DNA of 64,000 nucleotides, from assembly GCA_963719945.1 (NCBI GenBank), contig CAVRDX010000001.1:544001-608000 (forward strand). Direction: 5' to 3'. The notes under the pieces were generated by a model, which made no database searches, was not told the DNA's origin, and was given only the letters and a program-made list of their open reading frames with translations. Position 1 is the stretch's first letter, and each line of letters starts with the position of its first letter. The DNA comes from an uncultured Thermoplasmata archaeon (lineage in GTDB: Archaea > Thermoplasmatota > Thermoplasmata > UBA10834). The position numbers were made by a program, and so were the translations under genes. Positions 6,662 to 14,784 of this stretch are shown one piece after another.

Positions 6662-6849
6662 ATTCTGCCATCGGTCCCGTTTTCGAGAAACACCATTCTC
6701 ACGCCCAATATATCTCCGTATCGGCGATTTCGATCTAGACTGGCCAAGACCGACAGACACATCGAATCATCAATGAACCGATTTTGCTCATGATGATTAG
6801 ACGCAATGTTGCATTCAGCCATACTATATCGGCACAAGAAAAATCGAAG

Positions 6850-6934
6850 TGCGGGGGCTGAGATTCGAACTCAGGGACTCCTTCGAGACCAGACCCTCAA
6901 TCTGGCGCCGTTGACCGGGCTTGGCTACCCCCGC
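6850..6934 (-). tRNA. tRNA-Leu (anticodon GAG)
   Basis: Reverse complement GCGGGGGTAGCCAAGCCCGGTCAACGGCG-CCAGA-TTGAGGG-TCTGG-long variable arm-GAGTTCGAATCTC-AGCCCCCGCA; CCA not encoded. Confidence 0.96.
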
Positions 6935-7188
6935 TTGATGGTGCTGGCATTCGGTCGATATATGTTCCCTCATTAAAGCCTTTCGTATCGATGAGTGCAT
7001 GTCACGCATCATAAACGAAGGCATGATGCACTATGAGATATCGAGCGGGCCAGTAGTCGCAATGAACATACATGTCTATCATTGTTCTCCGGATATCAGT
7101 AAATAAATACTCATTTGCAATACGGTGTACCCGAAGCACACAGTCGGAGCTAGCTCTGACCGTGGAAGCCAAACAGGGGAATGTTAAA

Positions 7189-8655
7189 ATGATCGGTTTC
7201 CCGAAAGGAAAAATCGCGTTCCGAATGTTCCAGGAGAAGGACCTGGAATCACTTCACTGGGGAACGTTGGACGTGCTCGAGAACGCAGGAATAAAGGTCT
7301 TCAGCGAAGAATGTCTGAAGCTCCTTGAGGATGCAGGGGCCACTGTGGATTACAAGCAGAGCAGTGCCAAGATCCCCGGAAACCTCGTTGAGGAGGCCAT
7401 AACCAAGGCAAAGAAGAACATAACACTCTTTGCAAGGAACCCGAAGAACGATGTGGTACTCGATGGACGAAGAGTCTATTGCTGCACTGATGGAAACGGC
7501 ACTGGTGTTATGGATTTCGAGACCGGAAAGAGACGCATGTCTACGAGCAAGGACCTTGAGATGGTTGGCAAGGTCGCAAATGCTCTCGACTCCGCGCACA
7601 TCTTCTGGCCTTGTGTGAGCAGCCAAGACATACCTGATTATTACAGGCATGTCGTGGATCTCAAAGTCGCATTAATGAGCATCGAGAAGCATGTTCAGGT
7701 AGAGACGACCAGCCACCGCAGAGAAGCACAATGGCTCGTCAAACTCGGTTCCGCGCTCGCAGGTGGCGAGAAGGAATTGAGAAGGAGGCCAATATTCTCA
7801 TCCATGCACTGCCCGTTCTCCCCGCTCCAGCTTGACGGAGGTTCGACTGAAGGTGCTCTTGCACTCGCAAGGGCCGGCGTGCCGATATCGTTCTACGGAA
7901 TGCCACAGGCAGGCATCACCGGGCCTGTGACACTCGCAGGATCAATCATTGTGAATAACGCTGAAGTACTAGCTGGCCTAACGATGGCACAGCTCGCAGC
8001 CCCCGGCTCACCGTTCATGTACGGGACGGGCGGAGCAGCATTCGATATGAAGACAATGACTTGGGCAGGCGGCGGACCGGAGAGAGCGCTAATATCCAGT
8101 GGAGCAGGAGAACTAGCTCATTGGTACGGATTCCCGATCCTTTGTGGTGGAATAGTCACCTCCGCGAAGGTACCTGGCCCACAGTCCTGCTATGAGAAGA
8201 TGTCTAGCGGAATGCCACAGTTCTACGCGGGCTGCGACATGATTGCGGGATTGGGTCTCCTTGACGATGTTTCTATGCTCTGCTATGAGCAGATGGTCAT
8301 CGACAACGAAATGGTCAAGATAATGGCTAGACTCGCTCAAGGCGTCATCGTTGACGACGAACACATGGCAATCGACCTGATCAAGAAGGTCGGACCCGGC
8401 GGTAGCTTCCTGCCAGAAAGACACACCATGAACTGGCTTCACAAAGAGCATTTCATGACTGAGATAACTGACAGGAGGACTGGCGAGATATGGGAAGCGG
8501 ATGGCAAGAAGAGTGCCGTCGACCGCGCCAGGGAGAAGGCTGCCAAGATCATGAAGGAGCATGTGGTCCAGCCTGTCGCAGCTGAGGTCTCGAAGCGGTT
8601 CGAAGACATAATCGTAGCCGCGGAGAAGGACATCCGCGAGAATGGACTCAACTGA
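7189..8655 (+). CDS. Trimethylamine:corrinoid methyltransferase superfamily (MttB-like), non-pyrrolysine
   Basis: SPLQLD, GPVTLAGS..NAEVLAG, SAKVPGPQSCYEK, EQMVIDNE, VGPGGSFL..HT; no in-frame TAG. Confidence 0.92.
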   Translation: MIGFPKGKIAFRMFQEKDLESLHWGTLDVLENAGIKVFSEECLKLLEDAGATVDYKQSSAKIPGNLVEEAITKAKKNITLFARNPKNDVVLDGRRVYCCTDGNGTGVMDFETGKRRMSTSKDLEMVGKVANALDSAHIFWPCVSSQDIPDYYRHVVDLKVALMSIEKHVQVETTSHRREAQWLVKLGSALAGGEKELRRRPIFSSMHCPFSPLQLDGGSTEGALALARAGVPISFYGMPQAGITGPVTLAGSIIVNNAEVLAGLTMAQLAAPGSPFMYGTGGAAFDMKTMTWAGGGPERALISSGAGELAHWYGFPILCGGIVTSAKVPGPQSCYEKMSSGMPQFYAGCDMIAGLGLLDDVSMLCYEQMVIDNEMVKIMARLAQGVIVDDEHMAIDLIKKVGPGGSFLPERHTMNWLHKEHFMTEITDRRTGEIWEADGKKSAVDRAREKAAKIMKEHVVQPVAAEVSKRFEDIIVAAEKDIRENGLN

Positions 8656-8754: not shown

Positions 8755-9699
8755 TTGATACCGTTGGAGCTGGTGCGAGAGTTCGAACAGCAGATGCACA
8801 ACCTTCGAATCGGGCACACGTCATTTAGAAGAGCTTCTAGGCTCGAGAAAAAGCTCGGTATCAGACGGCTGCATCTCAAGCTGGAATCGGAGAATTCTTC
8901 AGGGACGCACAAGGACCGTTCCGCCCTTCTATACGCACTCGATGCAAGGAAGAAGGGAAAGAACACCTTGGCCGCAGTGACATGCGGCAACTACGGCGCA
9001 GCGCTCGCCTATGTGTGTTCAAAGCTCGACATGAACTGCCAGGTCTACGTACCATCAGAGTTTGCGTCGAGCAGGAACAAGGACATAGAGGCTTTTGGTG
9101 GCAATGTTGTCATAGCGCAGGGAGACTACGAGGCCGCGCTCAATGCCTGCGTGAAGGACACGACTGCAAACGGATGGTACAACGCCAATCCAGGTGGTCC
9201 TGACAAAGAGCTCGCTGTATACTCATACTCATTCATAGCAAGGGAGATAGCACAGGAACTGGGGAGACAGCCTGATTGGATATCCGTACCATTTGGAAAC
9301 GGGACGCTACTTGCAGGCATTTGGCAAGGGTTCCGCGCAATGAGCATGAAACCCAGAATCCTTGGCTACTCCAACAACAACTCTGCAATCCATGGTCTGG
9401 TTAACAAGTCACGAGTGCCCATCCCAGTGAACGGGTTGACAATAACAGAGGTGAATGAGCCATTGGCAGGCAATTTTCTCCTCGACTACATAGACGGAAT
9501 GAACGCGATACTGGAATCCAATGGGGCAGCTTTCGAGATATCTGACGAAGAGATGTTGAAAGCGTCCAAGCTCATCATGGATCAGGAATCCCTCGATATC
9601 CTACCAGCATCGGCCGGGGCGATCACTGCCATCACAAGATTAGAATCGCGCAACCACACATTCGCTGCCGTCATAACAGGCCGAGGGCACCACGGTTAG
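8755..9699 (+). CDS. PLP-dependent fold-type II enzyme, threonine synthase-like
   Basis: LKLESENSSGTHKDR (PLP Lys), TCGNYG, VPFGNGT, VITG; TTG start after GGGTGA. Confidence 0.85.
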   Translation: MIPLELVREFEQQMHNLRIGHTSFRRASRLEKKLGIRRLHLKLESENSSGTHKDRSALLYALDARKKGKNTLAAVTCGNYGAALAYVCSKLDMNCQVYVPSEFASSRNKDIEAFGGNVVIAQGDYEAALNACVKDTTANGWYNANPGGPDKELAVYSYSFIAREIAQELGRQPDWISVPFGNGTLLAGIWQGFRAMSMKPRILGYSNNNSAIHGLVNKSRVPIPVNGLTITEVNEPLAGNFLLDYIDGMNAILESNGAAFEISDEEMLKASKLIMDQESLDILPASAGAITAITRLESRNHTFAAVITGRGHHG

Positions 9700-9770
9700 G
9701 CCGTCGACCTATGTACAATTCTGTCCTAGCGAACATACCGTTCAATGGCCAAGTCCGTCCAGACAAGATA

Positions 9771-9780
9771 TTAATATATC
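9771..9780 (+). promoter_or_regulatory. Probable TATA box of the ilv operon
   Basis: TTAATATATC preceded by a purine-rich BRE-like stretch (AGACAAGA), about 30 nt upstream of leader ATG 9807. Confidence 0.6.
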
Positions 9781-9806
9781 GACAATCATCTGCAAACCCG
9801 GTACAA

Positions 9807-9887
9807 ATGTCCGCTGGTCAAGTCAATCTGACGCTTCTTCTTAGGACCCTAGAGGTCATTGTCGACCTGCGGATTGTAGGCCTGTGA
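9807..9887 (+). CDS. Putative ilv operon leader peptide (26 aa, MSAGQVNLTLLLRTLEVIVDLRIVGL)
   Basis: uORF between the TATA box and ilvB; 7 Leu, 4 Val, 2 Ile, including CTT-CTT-CTT and GTC-ATT-GTC runs. Confidence 0.75.
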   Translation: MSAGQVNLTLLLRTLEVIVDLRIVGL

Positions 9888-9945
9888 TGGGCACACGACC
9901 TGAGAGGTGTTGTGTCCATACGGGCAGGATTTGAGGAGTGTGATT
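9825..9945 (+). promoter_or_regulatory. Candidate translational attenuator (anti-SD/SD pairing plus leader hairpin)
   Basis: AAUC(UG)ACGCUUCUU 9825-9839 can pair with GAGGAGUGUGAUU 9933-9945; separate hairpin at 9887-9919. Confidence 0.55.
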
Positions 9946-9950
9946 TAGAG

Positions 9951-11633
9951 ATGAAAGGTGCCAGAGCCGCCGTGAAATTGCTGGAGAAGCAGAATGTCGA
10001 TTTGATGTTTGGCATCCCTGGCGGCGTTCTACTTCCGTTCTACGATGAGCTCGTTGACACGGATATCAGGCACATCCTTGTACGCCATGAACAGTGCTCG
10101 GCACACATGGCTGACGGTTATGCGAGAGTATCCAAGAGACCTGGCGTTTGCGTAGCGACCTCAGGACCAGGAGCCACGAATCTGGTAACTGGCGTAGCCA
10201 CCGCGTTCATGGACTCATCACCTATAATAGCGATAACAGGCCAGGTCGCGACAGGAGTGCTCGGGAACGATGCATTTCAGGAAGCAGACTCTTTCAGCCT
10301 GATGATGCCGATAACGAAGCACAACTTCAGGATAACTGACCCAAAGGACCTCCCTGAATCAATCAACCGGGCGTTCATGATAGCCACGACAGGGAGATAT
10401 GGACCTGTCCACATAGACATACCAACGGACATATTCCAGGCAGAATACAACGAAGAGGACCTCGATGTGAAGGCGAGGGTGCCAAAGCCACGCAGGAACC
10501 TCTCTGGCCTCCTGGACGCGATCAAGCTACTTGAATCAGCGGAGAGGCCCACCATAATGGTGGGTGGAGGAGTCACATGGTCACGTGCGGGGCCGGAGAT
10601 CACCGTGCTCTCCGATATGTTGATGGCGCCTATTGTCACCACATTAATGGCAAAAGGCTCCGTTCCTGATAACCATCCACTTGTCCTGGGCGTATGCGGA
10701 ATGCATGGGAAACAGGTGGCCAACTATGCATTGAACAACTGCGACGTCCTGTTAGCGATTGGAACCAGGTTCAGTGACAGAGTGACCGGCAAACTCAGCG
10801 AGTTCGGGACCAAGACGAAGGTCGTTCACGTCGATATCGACTCGTCAGAGATAGGTAAGAATGTGAAAGGCAGGGTCGGCCTCGTGGGTGATGCGTGGAC
10901 AGTCGTAAACGCCCTCATAGCGGGCCTGCAGAAGCGGAAGAAGAAGGCCACCTGGGTCGAGAGGATAAAGATACTCAAGAAGGAATGCACCTGCGACTAC
11001 AACATCAAATCAAATCCCATCAAACCACAAAAGGTCATATATGAACTGTCGAAGCTATTGCCCGATGATGCCATCGTCACGACCGAGGTGGGCCAGAACC
11101 AGATGTGGGCACTCCACTTCTACGAATGCTATGGCAACCGCATGTTCATCACATCAGGCGGTCTCGGGACCATGGGTTTCGGGTTCCCTGCGGCCATCGG
11201 TGCGAAATTGGCTAGACCAGATAGCGTCGTCGCGGATATTGCAGGCGATGGCAGCCTGCAGATGGTCTCGCATGAGTTCGCGACAGCGGTCGAGAACGAC
11301 ATACCAGTGATCGTGTGCCTGATGAATAACGGATGGCTCGGCAACGTCAAGCAATGGCAGAAGCTGTTTTATGGCTCGAGATACATTGCGACCGAGTTCG
11401 GAAGGAACCCCGATTTCGTCAAGCTCGCAGAGGCCTATGGGGCGGATGCGATAAGGGTGGAGAAGCAGTCCGAGGTCGCAGAAGCCATTCGGAGAGGAGT
11501 GAAATCCCAGATCCCGATATTGCTCGATTTCGTGATAGATCCCGAGGAGGATGTCCTTCCAATGACCCCGCCTGGCAAGGCATCCTCGGAATGCATAAAT
11601 GGAAGATGCATCTGGAAAGGAGGTGGCGATTAG
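9951..11633 (+). CDS. ilvB: Acetolactate synthase large subunit
   Basis: FGIPGG, RHEQ, TSGPGATN, GMHG, GDGS..NN TPP motif; ATG 9951 after GAGGAG. Confidence 0.96.
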   Translation: MKGARAAVKLLEKQNVDLMFGIPGGVLLPFYDELVDTDIRHILVRHEQCSAHMADGYARVSKRPGVCVATSGPGATNLVTGVATAFMDSSPIIAITGQVATGVLGNDAFQEADSFSLMMPITKHNFRITDPKDLPESINRAFMIATTGRYGPVHIDIPTDIFQAEYNEEDLDVKARVPKPRRNLSGLLDAIKLLESAERPTIMVGGGVTWSRAGPEITVLSDMLMAPIVTTLMAKGSVPDNHPLVLGVCGMHGKQVANYALNNCDVLLAIGTRFSDRVTGKLSEFGTKTKVVHVDIDSSEIGKNVKGRVGLVGDAWTVVNALIAGLQKRKKKATWVERIKILKKECTCDYNIKSNPIKPQKVIYELSKLLPDDAIVTTEVGQNQMWALHFYECYGNRMFITSGGLGTMGFGFPAAIGAKLARPDSVVADIAGDGSLQMVSHEFATAVENDIPVIVCLMNNGWLGNVKQWQKLFYGSRYIATEFGRNPDFVKLAEAYGADAIRVEKQSEVAEAIRRGVKSQIPILLDFVIDPEEDVLPMTPPGKASSECINGRCIWKGGGD

Positions 11634-11996
11634 ATGGAAGTTATGATGCTCTTGGTGTACGACCAGCCCGGCGTGATGCAACGTGTGATGGGCGAGTTCA
11701 CCAGAAAGAGGATAAATGTCGAGACCATCGTGGTCGGCAAGTGTGAGATGCCTGAGAGAGCGAGGATAGTTCTCTCCGTTACGGATAAGGAGAAGGCTCA
11801 CGGCGTGCTCGAACATCTGAGAGCGCTCCAGGAAGTCATAGAGGCCGATATCGTCGATTCAGATAGACACGAGGCATATGCCATCCTCCAAGGCAAGGAA
11901 GGGATATGCCGAGTCACAGGTACGGTGGAAGAGGTTGAGGCACTCGTAATGAAGAGCCAACCCAAGAGATACATAGAAGCTATGAATGCAATTTGA
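11634..11996 (+). CDS. ilvN: Acetolactate synthase regulatory subunit (ACT domain)
   Basis: DQPGVMQRVMGEFTRKRINVETI; abuts ilvB. Confidence 0.88.
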   Translation: MEVMMLLVYDQPGVMQRVMGEFTRKRINVETIVVGKCEMPERARIVLSVTDKEKAHGVLEHLRALQEVIEADIVDSDRHEAYAILQGKEGICRVTGTVEEVEALVMKSQPKRYIEAMNAI

Positions 11997-12013
11997 AAAC
12001 GGAGTGGTCTAGA

Positions 12014-12994
12014 ATGGCTAGGATATACTACAACAAGGATGCGAACCTGAACGCGCTCAAGGGCAAGAAGGTCGCAGTGATAGGATACGGAATACAGGGA
12101 AGAGCCCAGTCGCTCAACCTGAGAGACAGCGGAGTGAACGTGGTAGTTGGACTCAAGTTCAGGGACGATTACTGGAAGCAGGCGAAGGCCGATAAGATGG
12201 AAGTCCTGGATATCCCTACAGCGGTAAAGAGTGCCGATATCGTCATGATGCTCATCCCAGACGAGGTCCAGAAGATGGCCTACGATGCAGAGGTAGCGCC
12301 GAACTTGAGACCAGGAATGACTCTCGACTTCGCTCACGGATTCAACATCCACTTCAAACTCATAGTCCCTCCGAAGGACGTCGATGTCATAATGGTCGCT
12401 CCGAAGGGACCTGGTGCCTTGGTCAGAGAAACTTTCGTAGCGGGCAATGGAGTACCCGCACTGATAGCGGTCCATCAGGATGCGAGTGGGAAGGCCAAGA
12501 AGACCGCGCTTGCCATAGCGAAGGGACTCGGAGCGACAACGAAGGGAGTCATCGAAACCACCTTCACCGAGGAGACTGAGACAGACCTGTTCGGAGAGCA
12601 GGTGGACCTATGCGGTGGCGCGAGCGACCTCATAAAGAAATCGTTCGAGGTTCTGGTCGAAGCCGGCTACCAACCAGAGATCGCTTATTTCGAGGTGCTC
12701 CATGAGCTCAAACTCATAATCGATCTTGTCCAGAAGGGCGGTATCGAGGGCATGTGGAAGAACGTCTCCAACACCGCCGAATATGGCGGAAGGACACGTG
12801 GACCAAGGATAATCGATGATCGGGTCAAGAAGAACATGCAGGCCGTCCTCAAGGAGATCCAATCAGGTGCATTTGCCAAGGAATGGGTCAACGAATGCAG
12901 CTCAGGCATGGCCACACTCACCAAGCTCAGGAAAGATGGTGAGAAGGACCAGATCGAAGTCGTCGGCAAATCAATAAGGAAGATGTTCAAGTAG
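12014..12994 (+). CDS. ilvC: Ketol-acid reductoisomerase
   Basis: IGYGIQG, FAHGFNIH, APKGPG, ETETDLFGEQ, SNTAEYG. Confidence 0.97.
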   Translation: MARIYYNKDANLNALKGKKVAVIGYGIQGRAQSLNLRDSGVNVVVGLKFRDDYWKQAKADKMEVLDIPTAVKSADIVMMLIPDEVQKMAYDAEVAPNLRPGMTLDFAHGFNIHFKLIVPPKDVDVIMVAPKGPGALVRETFVAGNGVPALIAVHQDASGKAKKTALAIAKGLGATTKGVIETTFTEETETDLFGEQVDLCGGASDLIKKSFEVLVEAGYQPEIAYFEVLHELKLIIDLVQKGGIEGMWKNVSNTAEYGGRTRGPRIIDDRVKKNMQAVLKEIQSGAFAKEWVNECSSGMATLTKLRKDGEKDQIEVVGKSIRKMFK

Positions 12995-13046
12995 GCCATC
13001 CGAAAAAGACATACATGATCGATGCCTAATGTGTACATCGTAGTAG

Positions 13047-13838
13047 GTGGAGAAGTTGGAACCCTCTATACCAAACGGGATCCGGCTCGGCCGATTCAGG
13101 ATTGGGGACCGGACTTTCGTCGGAATCGTCGATGGAGACGAAGTTATAGAGACAGACAGGACATCCATGGAAGACGTGGTCAGTCAGGGATTCACGAGGA
13201 AAGCTATCAGTCACCAATTCTCGCGAGTCACTGTCCTCGCACCGTTCCCAAGACCATCGAAGATCATCTGCATCGGCCTCAACTATCGCAGTCATATCGA
13301 GGAGATGAACTGGGAGGTCCCAAAGGTGCCGATAATCTTCACCAAGCCGTCCTCCGCTATAATCGGTCCAGGAGACAATATTTGCATACCGAAGATGTCT
13401 TCAAGGGTCGATTACGAGGGTGAATCCGCCATAATAATCAGCAAGAGGGCTAGACACACCGATGACGGCGGATCCCACATTTTCGGTTACACTTGCATGA
13501 ATGATGTCACCGCCCGAGACCTCCAGAAGATCGACCCTGATTGGACAAGGGCGAAAGGCTTCGACACCTTCGCCCCGATGGGCCCGTTCGTTTCAGGTCG
13601 ATCCCCGAAAAGGATATTGACTAGATTGAACGGAAACGTGGTACAGGACGCGCCTCTATCCGACAGAGTGTTCGGCGACGCGGCCTTGGTCGAATACATA
13701 TCAAAAGTCATGACCCTCGAGCCAGGAGACATCATTGCAACTGGTACACCATCTGGAATCTCCGCCATGAGACCCGGAGATCTGGTCGAGGTGGACCTTG
13801 AAGGCATCGGATGTTTGAAGAACAGGGTAGTCAGTTAG
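13047..13838 (+). CDS. Fumarylacetoacetate hydrolase family protein
   Basis: KIICIGLNY, FTKP, DYEGE, NDVTARD, KGFDTF, GDIIATGTPSG; start could be TTG 13056. Confidence 0.92.
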   Translation: MEKLEPSIPNGIRLGRFRIGDRTFVGIVDGDEVIETDRTSMEDVVSQGFTRKAISHQFSRVTVLAPFPRPSKIICIGLNYRSHIEEMNWEVPKVPIIFTKPSSAIIGPGDNICIPKMSSRVDYEGESAIIISKRARHTDDGGSHIFGYTCMNDVTARDLQKIDPDWTRAKGFDTFAPMGPFVSGRSPKRILTRLNGNVVQDAPLSDRVFGDAALVEYISKVMTLEPGDIIATGTPSGISAMRPGDLVEVDLEGIGCLKNRVVS

Positions 13839-13842
13839 GATA

Positions 13843-14784
13843 ATGAGAGGAGATGAGAACTTGCAGATTCAGCCGACCGAGAAGATCTGGAAGAATGGAG
13901 AGTTGATATCGTGGAAGGATGCGACAGTTCACGTGCTCACGCATTGCCTGCATTACGGAACTGGAGCCTTCGAGGGAATCAGATGTTACAGCACGGACAA
14001 AGGACCTGCGATTTTCAGGCTCAAGGACCATATGTCGAGGCTCCACACATCTGCGAAGACAATCAATATCCAGATACCACACAGCGTTGAAGAACTCTGC
14101 ACCGCGGCTAGAGATCTGGTGAAAGTGAACAATCTTGATTCGTGCTACATAAGGCCTATCACATTTTTCGGTGTCTCCGGCATCGGTGTCAATCCTATAG
14201 GCTATCCGATCGAGACATTCATCATCGCGTTCCCTATGGGATCGTATTTGGGAGATGAAGGCATGAAGAAGGGCATCAGGGTACACACATCGTCATGGCA
14301 CAGGATGCCGGTCGGTTCGGTCCCAGCAACCGCAAAGGTCTGCGGCGACTACCTGAATAGCGCCCTCGCAGTCATGGAAGCTAAGCAGAATGGGTTCGAC
14401 GAAGCTATAATGCTCAACGATCAGCACATGGTCGCAGAGGGTTCTGGTGAGAACATATTCATGGTCAGGAACAATAGGATACTCACCCCCCCGATCAGCA
14501 CCGGCATACTACCTGGTATAACGAGAGAATCGGTCATGACGATCGCAGGAGACCTTGGATATCAGGTTGTCGAACAGAATTTCTCCAGAGGCGAGATGTA
14601 TCTAGCGGATGAGTTGTTCTTCACTGGCACTGCAGCCGAGGTCACACCGATCAGAGAGGTAGACCGAAGGACCGTTGCGAGTGGCTCACCTGGACCTATC
14701 ACCATGGCGCTCCAGGAGAGATTCCTTCAGATTGCCCGAGGCAATGATACCAAGTACTCATCCTGGCTGGACATTGCAAGATGA
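13843..14784 (+). CDS. ilvE: Branched-chain amino acid aminotransferase
   Basis: LHYGTGAFEGIR, AK..GDY, EGSGENIF, LPGITR, GTAAEVTP. Confidence 0.96.
   Translation: MRGDENLQIQPTEKIWKNGELISWKDATVHVLTHCLHYGTGAFEGIRCYSTDKGPAIFRLKDHMSRLHTSAKTINIQIPHSVEELCTAARDLVKVNNLDSCYIRPITFFGVSGIGVNPIGYPIETFIIAFPMGSYLGDEGMKKGIRVHTSSWHRMPVGSVPATAKVCGDYLNSALAVMEAKQNGFDEAIMLNDQHMVAEGSGENIFMVRNNRILTPPISTGILPGITRESVMTIAGDLGYQVVEQNFSRGEMYLADELFFTGTAAEVTPIREVDRRTVASGSPGPITMALQERFLQIARGNDTKYSSWLDIAR

Follow-up and report, generated by a model that had tools for sequence, protein, structure and literature searches.

A conserved leader rich in branched-chain amino acid codons precedes the ilvB operon of an uncultured Thermoplasmata archaeon

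In an uncultured archaeon of the Thermoplasmata, the ilvB-ilvN-ilvC-FAH-ilvE operon is headed by a 5' leader that is a real and conserved element, and the specific helix that a first-pass annotation had proposed as its switch, in which Leu codons of a short open reading frame (ORF) pair with the Shine-Dalgarno (SD) sequence of ilvB, is an ordinary compositional contact and not a conserved design. We consider it probable that this stretch is a ribosome-dependent regulatory leader of some kind. Our preferred reading, to which we assign a probability of roughly 0.4, is that it would serve as a ribosome-read sensor of charged Leu-, Ile-, and Val-tRNA with a translational output. All coordinates are positions within the window, that is, the whole 64,000-nucleotide (nt) stretch of DNA analyzed, and features lie on the forward strand unless stated otherwise.

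RESULTS

Genomic setting of the leader

The leader locus is flanked by a threonine-synthase-like PLP gene (8755-9699) and by ilvB (9951-11633). The identity of the operon was established from family and domain matches: ilvB encodes the large subunit of acetolactate synthase (TIGR00118, 728 bits versus a cut-off of 538) and contains three TPP domains, and the remainder of the operon (11634-14784) encodes a short IlvN-like ACT protein, IlvC, a fumarylacetoacetate-hydrolase (FAH)-family protein, and IlvE. The ilvN-like gene (11634-11996) specifies 120 amino acids with a single ACT domain, and its NCBIfam small-subunit score of 41.7 bits falls below the cut-off of 56.9 bits. The FAH-family gene (13047-13838) lies between ilvC and ilvE, inside an operon for branched-chain amino acid (BCAA) synthesis. 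Farther upstream, a gene of the MttB methyltransferase superfamily (7072-8655) has a 527-codon frame free of interruption, which suggests a non-pyrrolysine member. A tRNA-Leu(GAG) gene on the reverse strand (6849-6934), 2.9 kb upstream of the leader, would read the CUU and CUC codons of the leader; its nearness is probably a coincidence.

The order to which the genome belongs was represented by 49 species genomes, of which 46 carry ilvB, and 44 upstream regions were compared. A metagenome scan added 16 leaders, one only from the window's subgroup, giving 60 sequences in all. An Rfam scan of positions 9000-10500 returned no leader or riboswitch family, its only matches being at chance level and unrelated to leaders. 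When the whole genome was searched with a profile of the leader using nhmmer, the ilvB copy alone was recovered; a weak second match falls within a coding region.

A short BCAA-rich ORF is conserved upstream of ilvB

A TATA box for the leader and ilvB (TTAATA, 9771-9776) was found in 44 of 44 orthologs, at a distance of 28 to 32 nt from the leader ATG in 40 of them and of 36 nt in the window's group. This placement, 28 to 36 nt before the ATG, implies that the mRNA would be leaderless or near-leaderless, the putative transcription start being deduced from the same spacing. Between the TATA box and the ATG, most orthologs carry a CATTGCSAR-like block (9785-9800 in the window), which is altered in the window's subgroup, where the ATG is shifted 6 nt downstream. 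This block may serve as an initiator or as a site for a regulator.

The leader ORF (9807-9887), identified by direct reading and by its conservation, has 26 codons, 13 of them for Leu, Ile, or Val, and ends in TGA. It is kept in frame in all 44 genomes of the order and on all 16 metagenome contigs. Its length across the 44 genomes is 26 to 30 codons, with every indel a multiple of 3, and its stop occupies one fixed place in 60 of 60 sequences even as TGA, TAA, and TAG are all used. Leu, Ile, and Val account for 45% of leader codons compared to 23.4% genome-wide; U occupies the second codon position in 45% of codons and the first in 8%; and the leaders use rare codons more often than the genome does (ATT, 56% versus 12%; CTA, 19% versus 7%; CTT, 22% versus 13%). 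The last Ile/Leu codons sit 4 to 5 codons ahead of the stop, the gap from the stop to the ilvB ATG is 53 to 65 nt, and the element is always directly ahead of ilvB. No such ORF was seen in two ilvB-bearing genomes from other families of the class. The annotation of a translated-looking BCAA leader ahead of ilvB is supported.

To judge from the alignment, conservation of the leader ORF is conservation of RNA plus BCAA codons and not of a peptide, since the conserved non-BCAA residues all coincide with one of the RNA helices P1, P2, and P3 described below. An arrest peptide ending in Arg-Pro-stop, as in TnaC, was considered and discarded: the window's genus has Leu in place of Pro, through a C-to-U change that keeps the P3 base pair, and the remaining conserved residues also coincide with helices.

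Two covarying helices frame the leader

Covariation was scored on one alignment of the leaders, with 500 shuffles as the control. In helix P1, codons 2 to 5 (9810-9819) pair with codons 20 to 23 (9864-9873). Its arms are paired in 77.5% of alignment cells, compared to 23 to 47% in slid controls, and its covariation score was matched by 9 of 500 shuffles. Compensatory changes in P1 were found in relatives L006, L020, and L043/47, and a shifted 5' arm was found in L012. Compensation comes at the cost of the peptide, as Asp is replaced by Gly in L006 and by Val in L020. P2 (9845-9857) is a weak, small hairpin around CUAG, with 72.7% of cells paired and marginal covariation. The CUAG in its loop (9849-9852) is present in 42 of 44 leaders and reads GUAG in the remaining two; its UAG is retained also in leaders that have Val GTA in place of Leu CTA.

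The best-supported feature of the leader is P3 (9880-9925), a stable hairpin of −28.9 kcal/mol: its pairing holds in 86% of cells, both sides have changed in 10 of its 13 pairs, and 0 of 500 shuffles reach the observed score. A second hairpin without a U-tract had been annotated at 9887-9919; it was recovered here and in fact extends outward to 9880-9925, so that the leader stop codon lies within its 5' arm. The ilvB SD is 9 nt past P3 in the window and 5 to 10 nt past P3 in all orthologs. A K-turn at the internal loop containing the stop codon was dismissed by eye, as the 3' arm has no GA step.

No U-tract follows P3, the longest T-run there being 3 in the window. A T-run of at least 5 between the leader stop and ilvB was present in only 3 of 44 orthologs, and 22 of 44 were without any T3 run. 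An intrinsic terminator in archaea would take the form of an oligo-U tract, and the ilvB leader has none. In the terms of a classical attenuator, P1 would be helix 1:2 and P3 helix 3:4. Pairing of the 3' arm of P1 with the 5' arm of P3, comparable to the 2:3 pairing of an antiterminator, is available in 94% of cells; it comprises 5 bp including 2 G-U pairs, displays no covariation, and is too weak to compete with the −29 kcal/mol P3.

Folding places the ilvB SD in a helix with Leu codons in the window

The proposed anti-SD strand (9825-9839) spans codons 7 to 11, Asn-Leu-Thr-Leu-Leu, and its partner (9933-9945) is the extended SD of ilvB, complementary to the 3' end of the genome's 16S rRNA (...GGAUCACCUCCU), with a GGAG core at 9935-9938 and the ilvB ATG at 9951. 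Base-by-base inspection confirmed the annotated 13-bp pairing with its 3 G-U pairs (9825-9828 with 9942-9945 and 9831-9839 with 9933-9941), as well as the 2-nt bulge at 9829-9830. Folds were computed at 37°C, which may not be the growth temperature of the organism, and a ribosome was modeled as a 27-nt footprint with its P-site stepped along the leader codons. The helix is thermodynamically competitive, as the minimum free energy (MFE) structure of 9800-9960 (−56.7 kcal/mol, z = −2.46) contains the long-range contact. From the leader ATG to position +15 of ilvB, the MFE structure (−59.3 kcal/mol) has the SD buried, and forcing the SD open yields exactly P1, P2, and P3 at −51.0 kcal/mol. The exact register annotated has a probability of about 0.3, because a CUU repeat allows the helix to slide between registers.

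In the free RNA of the window, the probability that GGAG is unpaired is 0.003. A footprint with its P-site at codons 5 to 14 raises this value to 0.3 to 0.6, and from codon 15 to the stop it returns to approximately 0. The claim that a ribosome on the Leu codons frees the ilvB SD therefore holds in silico. P1 and the proposed helix are mutually exclusive in a nested fold; as the Leu codons lie inside the loop closed by P1, a pseudoknot of the two is conceivable.

The Leu-codon/SD helix is neither conserved nor stronger than expected by chance

Across the 44 orthologous leaders, the helix displayed no covariation (score of 0.189 versus 0.186 shuffled, reached by 190 of 500 shuffles), a verdict that applies at the level of the order; within the window's own subgroup, the 9-bp core shows no substitutions. 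The helix is paired in 67.7% of cells compared to 66.1% when shuffled, and a register slid by 2 is nearly as good. L001 to L004 and L206 share an identical 9-bp core, which L009 and L200 also keep, and in L003, L004, and L206 the outer 4 bp have been disrupted with no compensating change. Among the orthologs, the SD is fully buried only in L001 to L004, the window's four near-identical relatives, and partly in L009; in the others, the best partner of the SD moves to different BCAA codons or the SD is free. A candidate anti-SD at Val-Leu codons (UCCUU with RAGGA) was also set aside; it is paired in 81% of cells, yet without covariation.

Mean accessibility of the SD in free RNA is 0.46 in the 44 orthologs, not below the genome background of 0.35, and the SD is largely free (at least 0.7) in 11 of 44. 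With a ribosome placed 13 to 16 codons before the stop, the ortholog mean is about 0.64, compared to about 0.40 at the stop; with a stalled ribosome, 16 orthologs gain more than 0.2, and 2 show a change below −0.2. These modeled values describe a modest trend in the direction of the attenuation model.

Recoding controls gave no sign that the Leu codons had been chosen as an anti-SD. The native duplex of leader and SD has an energy of −12.5 kcal/mol, compared to −13.9 ± 2.4 kcal/mol for synonymous recodings that keep the peptide and draw codons by this genome's usage, and 70% of recodings are as strong; applied to all 44 orthologs, the same control gave a mean z of +0.25. Against the ribosome-binding regions (22 nt) of 437 other GGAG-led genes, the leader forms duplexes of −15.8 ± 3.1 kcal/mol, 87% of them at least as strong as with ilvB's own. 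Recoding of codons 6 to 13 alone left SD accessibility at or below 0.05 in 44% of trials. When Leu codons 10 to 12 were recoded, predicted accessibility was 0.0008 with CUC, 0.25 with CUG, and 0.54 with UUG, compared to 0.003 for the native sequence. Folded over the same span, 300 GGAG-led genes showed burial equal to that of the ilvB SD in 6.3% of cases. A pyrimidine-rich ORF of Leu, Ile, and Val codons is complementary to any purine-rich SD, and the pairing is thus a by-product of composition.

Together, these results divide the translational attenuation model of the first-pass annotation. Its BCAA leader, its competitive helix, and the in silico release of the SD stand; its helix is not conserved and does not exceed chance, and the model leaves out P1 and P3, the two truly conserved features, the former of which excludes the proposed helix in a nested fold. 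The 13-bp helix is at most a species-level, composition-driven contact and not the conserved switch, and it may act in this species even so.

DISCUSSION

A possible mechanism and its rivals

The sensor that we favor would operate as follows. Transcription from the TATA box would produce a nearly leaderless mRNA with the 26-codon BCAA-rich ORF as its first cistron. Under ample supply, the pioneer ribosome would reach the stop and depart, and the leader would fold up, with pyrimidine-rich BCAA codons pairing with the purine-rich ribosome-binding site of ilvB. Under poor supply, a ribosome stalled on the central BCAA codons would mask them, and initiation at ilvB would rise. The anatomy, its conservation, and the modeled folds are what we observe; that the ORF is translated, that ribosomes stall on it, and that supply acts in this direction are what we infer. 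The genome encodes an ortholog of FttA/aCPSF1 (965 bits), so untranslated ilvB RNA may be lost secondarily to FttA-dependent termination or decay. Counting against a translational sensor, P1 and P3 both covary and are given no role in it; moreover, after ribosome release P1 should form ahead of the long-range helix, with which it competes, on the basis of the modeled folds.

The chief rival, which we hold to be unlikely, centers on P3 as a control point on the transcript itself, whether a pause, a site of FttA/aCPSF1 termination, or an element of processing or stability, with the timing of P3 formation set by the leader ribosome. A leader ribosome some 4 codons or fewer from the stop would melt the outer stem of P3. 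This proposal accounts for the best-conserved feature of the leader, including its 86% pairing, the covariation of 10 of 13 pairs, and the failure of all 500 shuffles to reach its score, as well as for the fixed place of the stop codon in the 5' arm in 60 of 60 sequences with all three stops, and for last Ile/Leu codons 4 to 5 codons before that stop; the presence of FttA in the genome is also in its favor. A hairpin by itself is not known to halt archaeal RNA polymerase, and P3, lacking a U-tract, would be left without a known archaeal mechanism. Nor is the alternative pairing between the arms of P1 and P3, with 5 bp, 2 G-U pairs, and no covariation, a match for P3, and a stall upstream would part ribosome and polymerase, which taken alone predicts less rather than more read-through in starvation. 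The position of the stop codon inside P3, with the SD 5 to 10 nt beyond the hairpin in all orthologs, lends itself to positive coupling, in which translation as far as the leader stop would open P3 and pass ribosomes on, or attract them, to the ilvB SD, and the BCAA codons would tune the flux or hold P3 open through a stall at the last Ile/Leu codons. A leaderless first cistron and an SD-led second cistron, as predicted here, are the usual layout of archaeal operons. We regard this coupling as improbable, given that a gap of 53 to 65 nt from stop to ATG is long for reinitiation, that a stall farther upstream would reduce ilvB expression in starvation, and that a ribosome at the last four codons produced no rise in SD accessibility in silico (mean change of −0.05).

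There is a similarly slight chance that the element is not a ribosome sensor, being instead a protein-binding site on RNA or DNA or an ORF for a small hydrophobic protein. Nucleotide conservation that reaches synonymous sites, a CUAG that persists even across a codon change, and the presence of palindromic pieces would fit such a site, and a protein ligand was favored by the authors who described the actinobacterial LEU element (PMC1262725). Against it stand the conserved frame, stop position, and BCAA enrichment, the constant placement directly ahead of ilvB, and the compensatory changes that preserve P1 over the peptide in L006 (Asp to Gly) and L020 (Asp to Val); the hydrophobic run is also too short and too charged for a membrane helix. 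That the helix of 9825-9839 with 9933-9945 is itself the selected regulatory switch of the leader family is very improbable. Its presence in the MFE structure, its masking by a footprint, and the persistence of the 9-bp core in the window's relatives speak for it, but it does not covary, its outer 4 bp are broken in three of those relatives, it is missing or replaced by other contacts in most orthologs, and it does no better than recoded or foreign-SD controls.

A second leader and broader implications

A second leader of the same genome, of the Leu type, lies outside the window on the reverse strand (G000:C1:221132-221191, equivalent to L169:3174-3233), before a leuA-like gene (C1:219456-221096). 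It consists of an SD-led, 19-codon ORF that ends in a Leu/Ile run and is conserved in 30 of 30 relatives examined. The ORF, like the ilvB leader, carries a CUAG-type motif, here as a terminal CCUAG, and is followed by a T4 to T6 tract abutting the leuA SD, a tract that the ilvB leader does not have. The order thus seems to rely on leaders that are matched to their pathway product and differ in output element.

It is a tentative proposal, falling somewhat short of even odds, that the ilvB leader is a terminator-free, ribosome-dependent amino acid sensor of Archaea, in which a leaderless BCAA-rich ORF ends in a conserved hairpin and the position of the ribosome sets ilvB translation. If this is true, the ilvB and leuA leaders would together make up a small regulon read by ribosomes, in a domain of life without documented attenuation. 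According to an archaeal transcriptome study of 2014, attenuators and riboswitches at that time lacked direct experimental support in Archaea (PMC4247193), and our literature searches for leader control of this kind returned bacterial cases only and no archaeal paper. The ilvB leader is a well-defined candidate: its ORF frame and stop position are kept throughout the order, as are two helices that covary and a promoter spaced for a leaderless mRNA. More generally, composition alone leads one to expect that BCAA codons will be complementary to an SD; without covariation or controls, such complementarity is no evidence for a switch.

Comparison with known systems

In the classical bacterial attenuators of BCAA genes, namely E. 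coli ivbL, ilvL, and leuL and the upstream ORF/ilvB-II motif of Corynebacterium ilvBNC (PMC10272879, PMC11857589), a short BCAA-rich ORF directly before ilvB, rare codons, and overlapping RNA helices recur as they do here. Those systems rely on an intrinsic terminator made of a hairpin and a U-run, with a competing antiterminator, whereas the archaeal leader has neither a U-tract nor a competitive antiterminator. The lack of a terminator in the archaeal version points to a translational or factor-dependent output. Archaeal RNA polymerase uses termination signals other than the bacterial hairpin plus U-run.

In ermC and cat translational attenuation, a ribosome halted within a leader ORF rearranges a hairpin so that the SD downstream becomes free, much as proposed here. 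Those leaders sense a drug through the nascent chain, unlike the ilvB leader, in which conserved non-BCAA residues coincide with helices and change when pairing is kept, making an arrest peptide unlikely.

The analogy to the actinobacterial LEU element upstream of leuA, drawn by the first-pass annotation, is apt, as a run of Leu codons pairs with an SD there too (PMC1262725). The base stem of that element is conserved across Actinobacteria, and its authors doubted ribosome-mediated control (Seliverstov et al. 2005, PMC1262725). In both, the Leu-codon run of an upstream ORF pairs with the SD of the next gene and a pseudoknot topology is possible; the ilvB leader differs in that its helix is not conserved, it has no sequence or Rfam relation to the LEU element, and it precedes ilvB rather than leuA in Archaea rather than Bacteria. 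The leaderless poly-Cys short ORFs of mycobacteria (the Ms5788A class), for which mutations established that the duplex is required (Canestrari et al., bioRxiv 10.1101/834739), share with the ilvB leader a leaderless first cistron rich in codons for the end product and the lack of a terminator. They are bacterial and Cys-specific, whereas the archaeal leader is rich in Leu, Ile, and Val codons, its duplex is predicted only, not conserved, and at chance level, and its P1 and P3 have no counterpart in the description of the mycobacterial ORFs. By analogy, the mycobacterial poly-Cys ORFs and the LEU element are bacterial precedents for exactly the translational logic that we propose for the ilvB leader.
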